Virus record (IMG/VR): IMGVR_UViG_3300021256_000002
Span: 128,001-192,000 of that record
DNA from: a virus
Lineage: Duplodnaviria; Caudoviricetes
DNA: 64,000 bases
Strand: one strand, 5' to 3'
Positions 6,449-55,766 of the stretch are shown piece by piece (the stretch's first letter is position 1; the number at the start of each line of letters is the position of its first letter). A program made the position numbers and the translations under genes. The notes beneath the pieces were generated by a model. The model saw only the letters and a list, made by a program, of their open reading frames with translations, made no database searches and was not told the origin of the DNA.

Positions 6449-6496
6449 ACCTCCTTTCAAATATATATCATATAGATAGTACATTTGAAAGGAGGT
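6449..6496 (+). promoter_or_regulatory. SD/anti-SD hairpin enclosing an early promoter (cassette A)
   Basis: acctcctttcaaat (6449-6462) is the perfect complement of atttgaaaggaggt (6483-6496); TTCAAATATATATCATA at 6456-6472. Confidence 0.75.
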
Positions 6497-6503
6497 GCTA
6501 AAG

Positions 6504-6677
6504 ATGAACGCTGATGTGCTAAATACAACACAGATCCAGTCTTTGGTTTCGCAGTTGACTATCGCGCATGGTCCAATTGCAGCCAAAGACTGGATCTTAA
6601 CACACATACATCCTGGGGTAAAACAGGCTGACGCAATGTCGGCTATGTTCAGGACGTATAAGAAAATGGTAGCTTAA
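6504..6677 (+). CDS. 57-aa peptide, AK(D/E)WIL family copy A
   Basis: SD gaaaggagg 8 nt before ATG 6504; clearly homologous to 54952-55125 and 55262-55432. Confidence 0.8.
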   Translation: MNADVLNTTQIQSLVSQLTIAHGPIAAKDWILTHIHPGVKQADAMSAMFRTYKKMVA

Positions 6678-6694
6678 CAGCTACTGTTTTAGTT

Positions 6695-6739
6695 AAAAAG
6701 GAGTAGCCGAAGCAACGCTCCTTTTTTACTTTTTTGTTA
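6695..6739. repeat. Conserved 3' element: hairpin/terminator plus minus-strand AACA-N6-TA promoter (cassette A)
   Basis: aggagtagccgaagcaacgctccttttttacttttttgtta; near-identical copies at 55149-55188 and 55455-55494. Confidence 0.8.
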
Positions 6740-7192
6740 ATATAATTTAGTATTTAGTACAATCAAATCTTCAACCGTTATATTATTTTTTCTCACGAAT
6801 TCTCTAATCTTTGGATTACTTTGATCTAATTTTTCACCTGTGATTTCGTTAAAGTTTATAGGTGGGCGCCTACCATGTATTATATCAGAGTATATTTGCT
6901 CAGCATGAGCAGTTACCCTTTTACGATATTTATCTAATTCAATTTCTTTTTGTCTTTCGCGTTCAGCTAATTGACGTTTACTCTCTTCAGCAGCCCTTTC
7001 TCGCTCTTTCAACCTTCTATAATCATAGTAGCTTCTAATTAATGGTTCGACGAAGAGCTGTTCAAATATTACCATTACCAAATAAGCAAAACTCAGACAG
7101 AGCATAGTTGGACCATCGATATTGCCAAATAAAAGTAACGCTAATAATATTAATGCTATCCACATAACAGATACCTCCTTGAATAAAAACAA
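6737..7192 (-). CDS. Membrane-anchored hypothetical protein
   Basis: Two hydrophobic N-terminal segments followed by a coiled coil; likely start at MWIALI after an AAGGAGG SD. Confidence 0.6.
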   Translation of the reverse strand: MFLFKEVSVMWIALILLALLLFGNIDGPTMLCLSFAYLVMVIFEQLFVEPLIRSYYDYRRLKERERAAEESKRQLAERERQKEIELDKYRKRVTAHAEQIYSDIIHGRRPPINFNEITGEKLDQSNPKIREFVRKNNITVEDLIVLNTKLY

Positions 7193-12546: not shown

Positions 12547-12578
12547 AATCCAGTAAGCTTCGGCTTACTGGATTTTTT
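12547..12578 (+). terminator. Intrinsic terminator (UUCG loop); near-duplicate at 13531-13563
   Basis: aatccagtaagc-ttcg-gcttactggatttttt. Confidence 0.85.
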
Positions 12579-40831: not shown

Positions 40832-41914
40832 TCAATAATCCATTTGAACTACACCAGGTTCTAAGGTTTTCATCATCTTCTCAGTGAACCATTTCGGCGC
40901 TACTCGTATTACTTCAAATATCGTAGTTATATTATCTGGGAATGAACGATTCCCATATATTTTCTTACCATTACGAGAAATAACTTGGAATACCAAGACA
41001 TTCTTTTCTCGTGTATATGCACTTATAAAGCTTGGTCTTGGTAATACAATCTCATCGAGTATCATATCAATAAGTGCTGAGCATACCCATTCAGATTCTT
41101 TCAATACAGTTATATTACCCAAGTCATACGTATTATATCTGTTTTTTCCACCATACTCTTTATTTATATCATGATTCATTCTAAACTTAGTAATACCTTG
41201 CTTATTACAAAGCTCGATGAATTTTTCAATATCTTCAATTCCCATTACGGAACTGATTAAATTTAATAATACGGTATAATAGCTTGTATACGGATGATAT
41301 TCATTTATCGTTAATGGATTCTTTAGATGCTTATTTAAAGTTAGATACGTGCTATATTCATAATAATAATCCATATCGATGCCAGTGAATTCTTTTTCAA
41401 TTTCCTTTCGATTCTCTTCTATCCACCAAACGGTATGAAGTTCATTAGCGATTTCCATCCTCAGGTTATCATCTAACACAACATCTTTACCATTCATAGC
41501 ATCGTCGGCTTTCTCGAAGATAATTTCTGGCTGAGTTTTCTCTTCTTTATTCTGAGTTAATAACTTAATATTTTGCTCACAATGAGAAAGCTCATGGAAT
41601 ACAACTCCTACAATTAATCCAAGAGCTTTCTCCTCATCTAACCCACCAAGTCCATTTCGCATTCGACAGCTATTGATTTCTTTGAGAGAATCTATATTGA
41701 TAAAGATAACTCCTCCAGGAATACTCGAACCCATAACAGTTCGATTGATTCCTATATCAATATCTCTTTCTAAACTAAATTTCAAATACTTAGCTTTTAT
41801 AGTAGGATTTATTCTACCATTAGCAAAATTGTATGCGTGTCTTGCAACCATTTTTGTATATTCATAAATCAGGTCTTTAGTGACCAACTTAGTAACATTC
41901 GATTTTTTTCCCAA
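40832..41914 (-). CDS. Putative zinc metallopeptidase-like protein
   Basis: FHELSHCEQ (HExxH) and downstream EIANE; overlaps the end of the primase gene. Confidence 0.5.
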   Translation of the reverse strand: MGKKSNVTKLVTKDLIYEYTKMVARHAYNFANGRINPTIKAKYLKFSLERDIDIGINRTVMGSSIPGGVIFINIDSLKEINSCRMRNGLGGLDEEKALGLIVGVVFHELSHCEQNIKLLTQNKEEKTQPEIIFEKADDAMNGKDVVLDDNLRMEIANELHTVWWIEENRKEIEKEFTGIDMDYYYEYSTYLTLNKHLKNPLTINEYHPYTSYYTVLLNLISSVMGIEDIEKFIELCNKQGITKFRMNHDINKEYGGKNRYNTYDLGNITVLKESEWVCSALIDMILDEIVLPRPSFISAYTREKNVLVFQVISRNGKKIYGNRSFPDNITTIFEVIRVAPKWFTEKMMKTLEPGVVQMDY

Positions 41915-42995: not shown

Positions 42996-44540
42996 TCAGA
43001 TTTGATTTTCAAGCATCAGCATTTCCTGTTTGAGTTCAGTGTAATCAATATCTAAGATTTCACCGAATAAATCAGGAAGCTCGTAATCAACAATAGCGAA
43101 CTGAGTATTTGCAATATCAGCAATTGGCTCAGACAACAAGTCGCTACGACCCATATCATCCAATGCAGGATACTTTTCTTTCTTCAGGTTCTTGTAGATA
43201 TCAGAATGTTCGATATCCTCAACGAATTTACCATTCTGAACTGTCCTATTCGTCAAATATCCTTCTACGTTAGAAGAGATAATAATAGGAAGCCATTTAA
43301 ACCCAAGCATACGAAGTTTCTTCTTCATCATAATCATGAGCTTCATGTATCTAGTCAAACCAGCACTGTTAGAAAGGTCAGTGAATCCTCCAAAGTATTT
43401 AGCGTACCAATTGAACACAAGTTTACGATTGATACGTTCAACACGATGATGCTTGATGTAATATTCGACTTCTTTTTTCGGAATCTTGATATGAAGCTTC
43501 CGTTTCAAAGTCTTGATGGTATGTTTTGCGTTGATTTCAGAGAGGATAATCAAACTCTCATCAATCTTCGTGGTATTCATCTCCAACTTATCCAGATAGG
43601 ATAAACCATCACTATCCTTATCTTCGTTAATCTCTTGGAGAGTAATACCGAAATTCTTCACACATCTGTAAGTCAATTGAGTCTTCAAGATTACAGAGTT
43701 GAATGAAATGATATTCTGACTGAAGTTATATTTGAAGATATTATCTACAATCAGATTCTTGTTAAGCAATTCTTCGGTATAAGCTTCAGCATCAACTGAG
43801 TTAGCTTCATACTTATCCCAAATAACACGGTTTTTCATCTCGTTATATTTTACTTTGGTGCTAATTGAATTATACATTTTAGCATATAAACATACGTTCT
43901 CGGCTACTTCGGTAACCACGAATAACGGTCTGAAATACAGGTCTAATTTCTTAACTTCACCTTTACCTTTCGCTGTGCTAATATAATGCATTACCAAAGG
44001 AATAAGGAACTTTATGAATGTACTGATTAGAATCAGAATCTTTGCATGTTCATTAGTAAATTCTAATGATTCAGAATAATTCTTATCGGGGTCTTTGTTC
44101 TGAGACAAATCAATCCGATAGTTATCCTCTACAAAGTGAACTATCTTTGCATACATCGTCGGAGTGACGAAATGCTTGTAGATAAAGTCAATCATCGTTT
44201 CTCTATTAGGAACGAATTTATTATTATCAATAAAGCATTTACATGCTAGATAGTTAAGAATCAATTCACCGTCATCATAGAACTTGATGAAGTAATTGAT
44301 GTAATGTGTGATAAGCTCGAATTTCTTCACATAAGAATCCTTGAATAAGACGTAGAACATGTTTCTATCTTCAATCTCTACCCCATGAATAAGTTTATCA
44401 AATGGGATAATTACCGTCTTATCCTTATACGTGACAACATTGTCACTTGGCTCAGGACGCCATTCATCTACGGGAATAACTCCTGCTTTTACTGCTAATA
44501 CGTCTACTGGTTTTGGATTACTCAATTTTATTCCTCCCAC
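42996..44540 (-). CDS. Probable non-virion RNAP promoter-specificity (sigma-like) subunit, phiKZ gp68/AR9 gp226 type
   Basis: 514 aa helical protein with early motif 44572-44587; LEFTNEHAKILILISTFIKFLIPLVMHY and DKDSDGLSYLDKLE resemble segments I recall from the gp68 family. Confidence 0.5.
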   Translation of the reverse strand: MGGIKLSNPKPVDVLAVKAGVIPVDEWRPEPSDNVVTYKDKTVIIPFDKLIHGVEIEDRNMFYVLFKDSYVKKFELITHYINYFIKFYDDGELILNYLACKCFIDNNKFVPNRETMIDFIYKHFVTPTMYAKIVHFVEDNYRIDLSQNKDPDKNYSESLEFTNEHAKILILISTFIKFLIPLVMHYISTAKGKGEVKKLDLYFRPLFVVTEVAENVCLYAKMYNSISTKVKYNEMKNRVIWDKYEANSVDAEAYTEELLNKNLIVDNIFKYNFSQNIISFNSVILKTQLTYRCVKNFGITLQEINEDKDSDGLSYLDKLEMNTTKIDESLIILSEINAKHTIKTLKRKLHIKIPKKEVEYYIKHHRVERINRKLVFNWYAKYFGGFTDLSNSAGLTRYMKLMIMMKKKLRMLGFKWLPIIISSNVEGYLTNRTVQNGKFVEDIEHSDIYKNLKKEKYPALDDMGRSDLLSEPIADIANTQFAIVDYELPDLFGEILDIDYTELKQEMLMLENQI

Positions 44541-53249: not shown

Positions 53250-54845
53250 ATGAAGCTTATTCTTTTAGATACAGAAAAATTCTGTCGATTGAATATGCTG
53301 AAAGAAGTAACCAATCCAATTGTACTTGATAGAGGATATACTCCTACATCAGATGGGCTTCTTTCAACATATATTTTTGGCACTTCAACCAAAGATAGAA
53401 AATCTACTTTTGCATATATTGATCTTCATTGCCATGTATTCCATCCGGTAATATATAAGTATATTCGTAGAATGGATAATCGTGTTGAAGGGATAATTGC
53501 TGGTAGAATACGTGTACGTATCGACTCAAAGACTGGGTATTTGATAACTGATGAAGAAGGTAGTACAGGAATTGATTTCCTATACAATAACTGGAACAAA
53601 ATCAAATGGCCTAAGAATGAATCGAAGATGAGATCCGATACGATTGACCTTCTTGCAGCGTATACGAGAAATGAAATTTTCATGAGTAAGCAAATCGTAT
53701 GTCCTGCATTCTATCGAGATGTAAATCTTCAGTCTTCTAAATCTGGTAGACCATCTATTCATAAAATCAACCGTCCGTATTCAAAGCTCATCCAGCTTGC
53801 TGGTACTTTGGATAATGGTGATTTTGCATTCAATTTGAACTATACTAAGTTCATGATACAGAAAACTACGATAGAGATATACGACTACTTCAAGAATCGT
53901 ATAGAGAAAAAACGTGGTTTGATAAAGCAGAATCTTCTGGGTAAGTCAACTGACTACGGTGCTCGTTTGGTAATTACCAATGAAGAGTTCATCTACAATT
54001 CAGTTGAAGAAATGCCGACATCATTCTACAAAACAGGCGTACCTGTTTCGTATTGTATGGCAATGGCAGCACCATTCTTCACTGGATGGATTCAGAATTT
54101 CTTCATTAGGGAATTTGAAGATTACCAATACAAATATCCGGGTTATGATGTAGAAAATAAAAAACCTATATACGTAGAACTTGAAGATCCTAGGATACAA
54201 TTCTCTGATGAGGTTGTACATGAGATGATGGAAGAATACTTACACTCATATGAGCACAGATTCGATCCAATATATCTCAAAACCAAAGATAAGAGATTTC
54301 CTAAGATAACTTTCCGTTTCAAAGGATACAGTGTAGCGGATTCTGAATTCGATCCTCATGACCCAGAGAAATTGTTGAGTCAGCGACCATTTACTTTAAC
54401 TGACTTAATGTACTTAGCTGCTGTTAATATATGTGAAGATAAACACATATATATCACTCGCTATCCGATGTCTGACCATTTAGGTATCTTCCCTTGCGGT
54501 ATAGCGGTATTATCAACTACGGTAACAGAAAAAATGATGATAGACGGAAAAGAATATCCGTTCTACCCAAAAGTTGAAGTTGGAAAAAGCTCTGCAAATG
54601 CATTTAAAGAAGTCTTAACTCTGTCTAATTGTTACTTAAAAGCACTCGGCGGCGACTATGATGGCGACCAAATCACTGGTAAAATAGTATTCTCACAAGA
54701 GGCTAATGCAGAGGCTGAAAGAATCATGCGGTCGTTTACGAATGTACTCGGAATTGATGGTGGTTGCATCAGAAAGACTGAGATTGAAGGCATTCAGACG
54801 TTATACTGCATGAGTCGTTGGAAAAATCCAAACGAAAAATTTTAA
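53250..54845 (+). CDS. RNA polymerase beta' N-terminal catalytic subunit (probably virion RNAP)
   Basis: GLLSTYIFG, KQNLLGKSTDYGARLVI, TRYP and catalytic GGDYDGDQ; late motif gaca-aaatcc-ta at 53216-53227. Confidence 0.92.
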   Translation: MKLILLDTEKFCRLNMLKEVTNPIVLDRGYTPTSDGLLSTYIFGTSTKDRKSTFAYIDLHCHVFHPVIYKYIRRMDNRVEGIIAGRIRVRIDSKTGYLITDEEGSTGIDFLYNNWNKIKWPKNESKMRSDTIDLLAAYTRNEIFMSKQIVCPAFYRDVNLQSSKSGRPSIHKINRPYSKLIQLAGTLDNGDFAFNLNYTKFMIQKTTIEIYDYFKNRIEKKRGLIKQNLLGKSTDYGARLVITNEEFIYNSVEEMPTSFYKTGVPVSYCMAMAAPFFTGWIQNFFIREFEDYQYKYPGYDVENKKPIYVELEDPRIQFSDEVVHEMMEEYLHSYEHRFDPIYLKTKDKRFPKITFRFKGYSVADSEFDPHDPEKLLSQRPFTLTDLMYLAAVNICEDKHIYITRYPMSDHLGIFPCGIAVLSTTVTEKMMIDGKEYPFYPKVEVGKSSANAFKEVLTLSNCYLKALGGDYDGDQITGKIVFSQEANAEAERIMRSFTNVLGIDGGCIRKTEIEGIQTLYCMSRWKNPNEKF

Positions 54846-54894: not shown

Positions 54895-54944
54895 ATCCTC
54901 CTTTCAAATATATATTATATCTGTATCATACAAGAAAGGAGGAT
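54895..54944 (+). promoter_or_regulatory. SD/anti-SD hairpin enclosing an early promoter (cassette B)
   Basis: atcctcctttc (54895-54905) pairs with gaaaggaggat (54934-54944); TTCAAATATATATTATA at 54903-54919. Confidence 0.75.
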
Positions 54945-54951
54945 GGTTCAA

Positions 54952-55125
54952 ATGAGTGCTGATATTCTCAGCATTTCTCAGATCCAGGATTTGGTATCTG
55001 AGTTGACCTTTGCTAAAGGTCCAATCGCCGCTAAAGATTGGATTTTGACGCATATCCAGAATGGATATAAGCAGTCTGTTGCAATGGCGACCCTGATGTC
55101 AACTTGGATCGCCTTAACTTCATAG
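54952..55125 (+). CDS. 57-aa peptide, AK(D/E)WIL family copy B
   Basis: GPIAAKDWILTHI identical to copy A; ATG 54952 at normal SD spacing. Confidence 0.8.
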   Translation: MSADILSISQIQDLVSELTFAKGPIAAKDWILTHIQNGYKQSVAMATLMSTWIALTS

Positions 55126-55148
55126 CCAATTATGAAGTTAAACCTAAG

Positions 55149-55188
55149 AGGAGTAGCCGAAGCAACGCTCCTCTTTACTTTTTTGTTA
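55149..55188. repeat. Conserved 3' element (cassette B)
   Basis: aggagtagccgaagcaacgctcctctttacttttttgtta. Confidence 0.8.
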
Positions 55189-55207
55189 ATATATTGAAAA
55201 ATTAAAC

Positions 55208-55253
55208 CCTCCTTTCAAGTATATATTATATCTATATCATACAAGAAAGGAGG
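55208..55253 (+). promoter_or_regulatory. SD/anti-SD hairpin enclosing an early promoter (cassette C)
   Basis: cctcctttc (55208-55216) pairs with gaaaggagg (55245-55253); TTCAAGTATATATTATA at 55214-55230. Confidence 0.7.
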
Positions 55254-55432: not shown

Positions 55433-55454
55433 CTCGTTGGTATAACCATGGAAG

Positions 55455-55494
55455 AGGAGTAGCCGAAGCAACGCTCCTCTTTACTTTTTTGTTA
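55455..55494. repeat. Conserved 3' element (cassette C)
   Basis: aggagtagccgaagcaacgctcctctttacttttttgtta, identical to copy B. Confidence 0.8.
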
Positions 55495-55544: not shown

Positions 55545-55766
55545 ATGGATAAACCGATTTGTGAATGCTGTAATACTGACAAATTCATCGTTCAGCGTCG
55601 TGGTGGTGGATATAGATGTGAGCGATGCAAAACCATATGGAACGAAAGAGGTGCACTTATAGGTCCTCAAAGTACTAAAGCGTGTCGTCAACCTTCTGGA
55701 TTAGATTATATCATAAGTGAGTATTCGTATCAAAGTACCGTGTCATATGGCACAAAGTTAGCTTAA
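55545..55766 (+). CDS. Small Zn-ribbon protein
   Basis: CECC...CERC; AAGGAG SD. Confidence 0.55.
   Translation: MDKPICECCNTDKFIVQRRGGGYRCERCKTIWNERGALIGPQSTKACRQPSGLDYIISEYSYQSTVSYGTKLA

Follow-up and report, generated by a model that had tools for sequence, protein, structure and literature searches.

Three small genes of a gut phage are each followed by the same short hairpin, and the question raised by this locus is which of the two DNA strands the hairpin serves. We analysed a 64,000-nt stretch (hereafter the window) that corresponds to bases 128001-192000 of an IMG/VR virus contig, which is 253,296 bp long and carries direct terminal repeats. The source is an uncultured giant gut phage, an AR9-like jumbo phage. 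Its RNA-polymerase beta' gene (53250-54845) shows about 35% identity to its counterparts in Goe21, BpSp, AR9 and PBS1, which are Bacillus jumbo phages, and DNA runs from sheep gut and bovine gut yielded phage contigs that were 0-3% different from the window. A gene for a distant homologue of gp226, the late-promoter specificity subunit of AR9 (window 43047-44144, minus strand), overlooked by a faster genome search, was found by tblastn of AR9 gp226 (23% identity over 357 residues, E=5e-9). Under the standard code, the coding density is 87%, with TAA, TGA and TAG used as stop codons 184, 92 and 24 times, respectively; intergenic sequence accounts for 12.6% of the genome, as judged from a rough gene set.

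The hairpin core (GGAGTAGCCGAAGCAACGCTCC, 22 nt) is present in three exact copies with 0 mismatches, all on the plus strand and designated A, B and C (see the table). The whole 253,296-bp genome contains no others, and shuffled sequences are expected to contain 0. Each hairpin lies 22-27 nt 3' of the stop codon of a paralogous early gene encoding about 57 amino acids. On the plus strand the stem-loop is followed by UCUUUACUUUUUU in copies B and C and by UUUUUUACUUUUUU in copy A, a U tract broken by AC. On the minus strand the same bases read GGAGCGUUGC-UUCG-GCUACUCC, forming a core stem of 4 bp, an internal loop (4x2) and a GC helix of 2 bp under the C(UUCG)G closure, and the tails are CUCCUUUUUAAC, CUCCUCUUAGG and CUCCUCUUCCA for copies A, B and C, respectively. 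The original prediction had described this tetraloop, internal loop and set of tails exactly. It had also stated that the minus strand has no U tract in copies B and C and that no convergent gene is found there, and both the tails and a check of the open reading frames (ORFs) agree. For copy A, a 5-U tract on the minus strand had been claimed and is indeed present; a convergent ORF (6737-7192, minus strand) ends beside this copy, with its stop codon at 6737-6739. The sequence of a C(UUCG)G loop is present on the minus strand, on a helix of only 2 bp and in a transcript that is predicted. GCGAAGC is a very stable DNA mini-hairpin, and we considered the plus-strand sequence GCCGAAGC as a structure of that type, but rejected it on account of a misfit in register.

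Table. Positions in the window of the three cassettes and of the RNA-library contigs over cassettes B and C.
Feature	Position	Strand	Remarks
Copy A hairpin	6695-6726	both	Core 6700-6721; lower stem lengthened by A5/T5-6
Copy A U-rich tail, TTTTTTACTTTTTT	6722-6735	+	
Copy A late-promoter-like motif	6727-6738	-	Predicted +1 at 6727; overlaps stop codon 6737-6739 of ORF 6737-7192
Copy A 5' element	6450-6495	+	Anti-SD/SD inverted repeat around early promoter 6459-6471
Small early gene A, 57 aa	6504-6677	+	
Copy B hairpin	55146-55175	both	Core 55150-55171; lower stem AAGA/TCTT
Copy B U-rich tail, TCTTTACTTTTTT	55172-55184	+	
Copy B late-promoter-like motif	55176-55187	-	Predicted +1 at 55176
Copy B 5' element	54897-54942	+	Perfect early-promoter match 54906-54918
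Small early gene B, 57 aa	54952-55125	+	Covered by RNA-library contigs
Copy C hairpin	55451-55481	both	Core 55456-55477; extra G.U pair at base, plus strand
Copy C late-promoter-like motif	55482-55493	-	Predicted +1 at 55482
Copy C 5' element	55208-55253	+	Early promoter 55217-55229
Small early gene C, 56 aa	55262-55432	+	Covered by RNA-library contig
RNA-library contig X18	54946-55240		Depth 4.9; no differences from window
RNA-library contig X19	54941-55173		Depth 12.4; no differences from window
RNA-library contig X19	55272-55439		Depth 3.2; no differences from window

The three small ORFs are paralogues, the other two being 56% and 31% identical to A, and each has a strong Shine-Dalgarno (SD) sequence. 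Upstream of each lies an early promoter of the AR9 type read by the virion polymerase (AAATATATATTAT), with a perfect match in B and one mismatch in A and C; 50 intergenic sites in the genome match this promoter with one mismatch or fewer. Each early promoter lies in the loop of an anti-SD/SD inverted repeat of 9-13 bp. The encoded protein family comprises 11 proteins among 1.8 billion representatives. We found no Pfam or PHROG family match for the small proteins; a structural model gave a 3-helix bundle (pLDDT 92.6), and a structure search with this model returned no informative match. Inspection of the sequences indicated that the proteins are not basic. A public gene call (P0001, window 54952-55197) reads the TAG stop of gene B as Q and continues for 24 more codons, across the hairpin. 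Since the standard code suits this genome well, the read-through looks like a choice of the gene caller rather than recoding, and a TAG sense codon is not needed with TAG as one of the stops.

The original prediction holds in part. Its central claim, that the hairpin is meant for the antisense rather than the sense strand, is not supported by the folding results. The RNAfold energies for copies A, B and C were -14.4, -13.6 and -15.5 kcal/mol on the plus strand, versus -13.5, -12.9 and -12.6 kcal/mol on the minus strand with the UUCG bonus included, so that the plus fold is more stable by 0.7-2.9 kcal/mol. The plus fold is equal or better because it gains U.G pairs that form on the plus strand only (U5.G18, and a further G.U pair in copy C). 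The surrounding cassettes lean the same way. RNAalifold found 70 consensus pairs on the plus strand (-41.4 kcal/mol) and 45 on the minus strand (-33.4 kcal/mol), and the structure z scores of the small coding sequences A, B and C were -6.4, -5.0 and -2.6 on the plus strand versus -5.2, -4.6 and -0.7 on the minus strand. In cassette C the antisense strand has hardly any structure (z -0.7 to -1.0), and three neighbouring genes used as controls had z scores near 0. The coding RNA of the small early genes is exceptionally structured, always more so on the sense strand, which may reflect very stable mRNAs or a second role at the RNA level.

The plus strand also carries the features of an intrinsic terminator: in all three copies, a stable stem-loop (-13.6 to -15.5 kcal/mol) lies 3' of a stop codon and is followed by a U-rich tract. 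A simple terminator scanner missed the hairpin because of its internal loop. The usual terminators of this phage have perfect stems of 11-16 bp, unlike the conserved hairpin. Only two other strong cUUCGg-capped hairpins occur in the genome (window 12547-12574, plus strand, and G000:C1:246265-246290, minus strand), and in both the UUCG is on the strand with the U tract and the upstream gene, a point in favour of the minus strand at the conserved hairpin. Both are classical terminators that have the stem ends ATCCAG...CTGGAT in common and C(UUCG)G on the transcribed strand, and the one at 246265-246290 is followed by an early promoter, in a layout resembling the PeSL cassettes of T4-like phages. 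In genes A and B, a second hairpin covers the stop codon (window 6669-6684 and 55119-55142, plus strand), just upstream of the conserved one; its sequence differs between the copies, and RNAalifold retains it with compensatory changes.

RNA-library material covers cassettes B and C. It comes from metatranscriptomic libraries of the two samples with the best phage presence, in the form of unstranded contigs in which DNA carry-over is possible. One contig (X18) spans the hairpin and tail of copy B by more than 31 nt on either side and, if it derives from RNA, termination there is leaky. This agrees with the setting of a 73-aa ORF with a CxxC...CxxC zinc-ribbon-like pattern and a Shine-Dalgarno sequence (55545-55766, plus strand), which lies directly 3' of cassette C: a motif scan recognised neither an early nor a late promoter of its own, so its transcription would rely on polymerase passing the C hairpin. 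The end of contig X19 at 55173 is not read here as a transcript 3' end: a DNA contig of another run ends at 55177, and the 43-nt exact repeat between B and C would break the assembly graph at an assumed word length of 31 letters. None of the RNA-library contigs lies over the polymerase gene or gene 55545-55766, and we did not count this as evidence.

We then considered the minus strand. The late promoters of AR9 have the form AACA-N6-T(A/G), with the final base as +1, and AR9 has late antisense promoters and transcripts (Lavysh et al. 2017, PMC5312081). Beside all three hairpins, the minus-strand motif AACAAAAAAGTA has the AACA-N6-T(A/G) form, and the sequence there (tAACAAAAAAGTAa) matches perfectly AACA-N4-AGTA, a tighter local form that we derived from gene-upstream sites of this genome. 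The genome contains 23 copies of AACA-N4-AGTA, 17 of which are intergenic (P=2e-11); leaving out the three hairpin sites, 14 out of 20 are intergenic (P=5e-9). The wider form AACA-N4-[AT]GTA has 14 sites located 12-105 nt upstream of a start codon on the same strand. AACA-N4-AGTA is thus a real promoter-like motif in this genome, and with the gp226-like subunit encoded as well, the late transcription start that had been proposed beside the hairpin is better founded than we expected and, as a prediction from sequence, credible. With the last A taken as +1, as in AR9 (PMC5312081), the predicted start lies one base before the stem; the extended stem then begins at +2, and the GGAG core follows at +6/+7. 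Farther along the minus strand, the 5' element of copy A forms a hairpin of -27.8 kcal/mol followed by UUUUUCUUUUUG, and that of copy C forms a hairpin followed by GUUUAAUUUUUC. These elements look like terminators for an antisense unit, which, with a hairpin and U tract at this end, would be complete at about 250 nt.

Searches for homologues of the cassette yielded one usable sequence. Scans guided by the protein sequences, over IMG/VR, JGI metagenomes and GTDB genomes, returned only L007, a near-identical relative of copy A; the phage collection gave no DNA or protein match to the cassette, and an Rfam search gave no credible family for the hairpin or cassette RNA. Two exact matches to an 18-mer of the hairpin (L004 and L005) were rejected as unrelated coding stretches, and a degenerate hairpin-plus-promoter pattern gave 24 chance matches, 0 of them homologous.

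Alignment of A, L007, B and C revealed a sharply bounded invariant block of about 45 nt that runs from the stem base to GTTA, whereas the spacers between stop codon and stem and the sequence past GTTA are unalignable. Within the block, the sequences differ at two places only: the first T run has one indel, and one lower-stem pair is changed in a compensatory way, A-U in copy A versus G-C in copies B and C, the sole covariation in the block. TAC and GTTA are invariant in all 4 sequences, as is the T6 run. The unpaired hairpin bases are identical in the three paralogues and L007, as the original prediction had noted for the paralogues, and neutral drift is excluded for them because the adjoining spacers are saturated. 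The sequence-specific recognition that had been read into this invariance does not follow from it: judging from three paralogues, constraints from both strands, recognition by a factor, or recombination between repeated cassette ends may be the cause, and the first and last explain it just as well as recognition does.

The tail carries the argument for two strands. The TAC interruption and GTTA are useless or harmful to a terminator and correspond to the GTA and tAACA of the promoter, which points to a promoter constraint. Conversely, T6 occupies the N region of the promoter, which differs in every other late promoter and is fixed here, pointing to a terminator constraint. Together the two requirements explain all 15 fixed bases, and it is mainly on this ground that we prefer a two-strand module to either single-strand reading. 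In this reading, about whose truth we are evenly divided, the 45-nt block encodes a leaky early-gene terminator on the plus strand and a late promoter with a 5'-terminal hairpin on the minus strand. On the plus strand, the virion RNA polymerase would produce a small, highly structured early mRNA ending in the hairpin and U-rich tail, which would act as a leaky intrinsic terminator, a protective 3' hairpin, or both. The tail's complement, TAC-T6-GTT, would on the minus strand provide the non-virion polymerase with an AR9-type late promoter, AACA-N4-AGTA. The first 30 nt of the resulting late antisense RNA would form the complementary hairpin, capped by C(UUCG)G, and its stem from +2 would shield the 5' end against 5'-dependent RNases. 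The RNA would then traverse the small gene and its ribosome-binding site and end at the 5' element, at the minus-strand hairpin with its U tract. In copy A, the same hairpin with U5 could also serve as the terminator of the convergent gene 6737-7192.

Several observations speak against this two-strand module: the antisense RNA of copy A would meet a hairpin and U5 within 35 nt; the plus-strand terminator would have to be inefficient, judging by the contig that bridges copy B and the promoterless gene 55545-55766; the hairpin departs from the perfect-stem terminators usual in this phage; the strongest antisense late RNA mapped in AR9 does not open with a hairpin; and the RNA evidence consists of unstranded contigs. 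The paralogy of the copies and a T insertion in one relative, described next, also count against it. One competitor keeps the sense strand only. The hairpin would be a terminator or 3' stabiliser (bidirectional in A), and the AACA-N4-AGTA on the minus strand would be an inherited coincidence yielding little or no RNA. The position after stop codons, the U-rich tail in all copies, the equal or better plus fold and the plus-biased structure of the cassette all suit this account, as does a relative (X4, depth about 4) in which a T inserted in the T run gives AACA-N7-TA, altering the promoter spacing and not the function of the tail. Moreover, the copies are paralogous, so that the three motifs are not independent and could have arisen once and been carried along. 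However, an 8-base motif is expected by chance at a given place with a probability of about 1e-3, and here it is exact in three cassettes with saturated flanks; a terminator has no need of the invariant TAC interruption and GTTA; and the UUCG lies on the opposite strand, unlike in the two other UUCG terminators of the genome. We regard the sense-only account as rather unlikely, though it is the strongest of the competitors. The opposite account, that of the original prediction, makes the antisense RNA the reason for the hairpin, as a 5' stabiliser or protein site at +2, with plus-strand termination incidental; it appears quite improbable. It draws on the C(UUCG)G of the minus strand, a +1 one base before the stem, the lack of a minus-strand U tract in B and C, the plus-strand read-through that is seen or required, and an imperfect stem that is atypical among the terminators of this phage. 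Yet the minus fold is never the more stable one, the wobble pairs that lengthen the stem form on the plus strand only, the invariant T6 run has no role in the promoter, and the antisense strand of cassette C has next to no structure.

Invariance could also result mainly from concerted evolution, with the terminator and early-promoter blocks serving as recombination "handles" that shuffle small ORFs, as proposed for PeSLs (PMC2839356, PMC4122927). Between B and C, the 3' block is exact over 43 nt and the 5' block is 88% identical, around ORFs that are only 31% identical, and relatives in which gene B is missing (P0002), a chimera occurs (P0006) or the sequence diverges after the C promoter (X3 and X4) fit such shuffling. 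Nevertheless, the block ends sharply at the stem base and at AACA+1 in every pair, where conversion tracts would be expected to be ragged; copy A, 48 kb away, keeps the core, and the compensatory change in the lower stem points to selection on pairing. Concerted evolution is in any case compatible with regulatory functions, and as the main cause of the invariance we consider it unlikely. Finally, the original prediction raised the idea of a feedback loop in which the cognate small protein binds the hairpin. All that speaks for such autoregulation is that the unpaired bases are invariant and that each gene has one hairpin of its own. The proteins are 31-56% identical while the hairpins are identical, and proteins that are not basic, are modelled as a 3-helix bundle with no structural match and gave no Pfam or PHROG match lend it no support; we judge it very improbable. 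A fuller form of the preferred two-strand module would have the 45-nt block act as a switch, with an early terminator on one strand and, on the other, a late promoter and a cUUCGg 5' stabiliser for a long-lived antisense RNA that shuts the gene off, its unpaired bases being read by a phage factor and the whole being copied as a portable cassette end. We put this fuller form forward as a speculative and rather doubtful extension. If both halves work, the block would be a very compact early-to-late switch within a portable gene cassette, carried by a giant phage that encodes two RNA polymerases: the stopping point of the early enzyme would also be the point from which the late enzyme sets off the other way. 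A defined set of late promoter, terminator and hairpin would then be available for AR9-like phages. If the terminator half alone works, the finding is an ordinary one.

Several known systems resemble parts of this element. Stem-loops at the very 5' end stabilise the E. coli ompA leader, the B. subtilis aprE leader and transcripts of phage SP82, and a stable hairpin a few nucleotides from the 5' end blocks 5'-end-dependent decay. The hairpin described here would likewise lie a few nucleotides from a 5' end (stem at +2 from the predicted +1), although that end is only predicted and the RNA is a putative antisense transcript. Temperate phages make short antisense RNAs whose start lies past the 3' end of the target gene, such as lambda oop, which acts against cII, and P22 sar; they take part in lysis-lysogeny decisions and are made by the host polymerase. 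They share with the cassettes a promoter that lies 3' of a gene and fires back into it, whereas here the decision would be an early-to-late switch, made with a phage polymerase and repeated as a cassette. As in intrinsic and bidirectional terminators, a stem-loop and U-rich tract follow the stop codon, and in copy A, which lies between convergent genes, A and U tracts flank the hairpin on either side. By contrast, an internal loop divides the short stem here into parts of 4-9 bp and 2 bp, an AC breaks up the U tract, and there are signs of read-through.

As read here, the element would combine traits of intrinsic terminators, of the late antisense promoters of AR9 and of PeSL-like cassettes. 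AR9 operons and polymerases stop at predicted hairpin terminators (PMC5312081). With the late promoters and antisense RNAs of AR9 (PMC5312081), our sites share the AACA-N6-TA geometry, a gp226-like gene in the genome and a predicted late promoter that points antisense into an earlier-expressed gene. They differ in their local consensus, AGTA versus (A/T)TTA in AR9, and in that the promoter lies within the U tract of an opposite-strand terminator and the hairpin begins at +2. In T4-like phages, PeSLs are cassettes that combine a terminator with an early promoter (Arbiol 2010, PMC2839356; Comeau 2014, PMC4122927). Here too, repeated modules of stem-loop and early promoter flank small, fast-changing ORFs, and relatives appear to differ by gain, loss or chimeras. 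The junction from B to C contains the repeated composite of a terminator (55146-55175) and then an early promoter (55217-55229), and the B and C cassette blocks are 96% and 88% identical around their divergent ORFs. Unlike the PeSLs of T4-like phages with a sigma-70-type early promoter, however, the present cassettes belong to an AR9-like phage and have a promoter of the virion-polymerase type, which sits inside an anti-SD/SD hairpin, and they carry an added, predicted antisense late promoter.

Comparison with relatives at the level of proteins or contigs suggests that cassettes have been lost and that recombination has occurred at the repeated regulatory blocks. In the relative that encodes P0002, the polymerase-gene terminator and a B-type promoter are joined directly to a C-type ORF, with the joint in the promoter block. 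Because P0002 runs straight into the C-type ORF, gene B is absent from that relative. P0006 is a chimera of the B and C types, and, on contig evidence, relatives X3 and X4 leave the window sequence right after the C promoter.

The strongest antisense late RNA mapped in AR9 starts at 75478 on the minus strand (L034, AR9 74600-76200) and lies opposite a 61-aa ORF, g090, which adjoins the 3' end of an RNA-polymerase subunit gene. Its 5' start is an unpaired CCUCC box, without a 5'-terminal hairpin. The g125/g126 pair of AR9, which has the most abundant antisense RNA, was considered as an analogue and rejected, these being virion and sheath genes. In the present genome, two other late promoters with no gene behind them open with a stable hairpin at +2/+3 (genome 41720, minus strand, and window 53020, plus strand), which favours the antisense side of the conserved hairpin. 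The former belongs to a gene-less unit outside the window (G000:C1, about 41480-41731, minus strand), located between two plus-strand genes. This unit has the promoter sequence AACAATTATGTA, a hairpin of -11 kcal/mol at +2 and, about 190 nt on, a terminator-like hairpin with a U tract; judged by this layout, it is probably a late small RNA.
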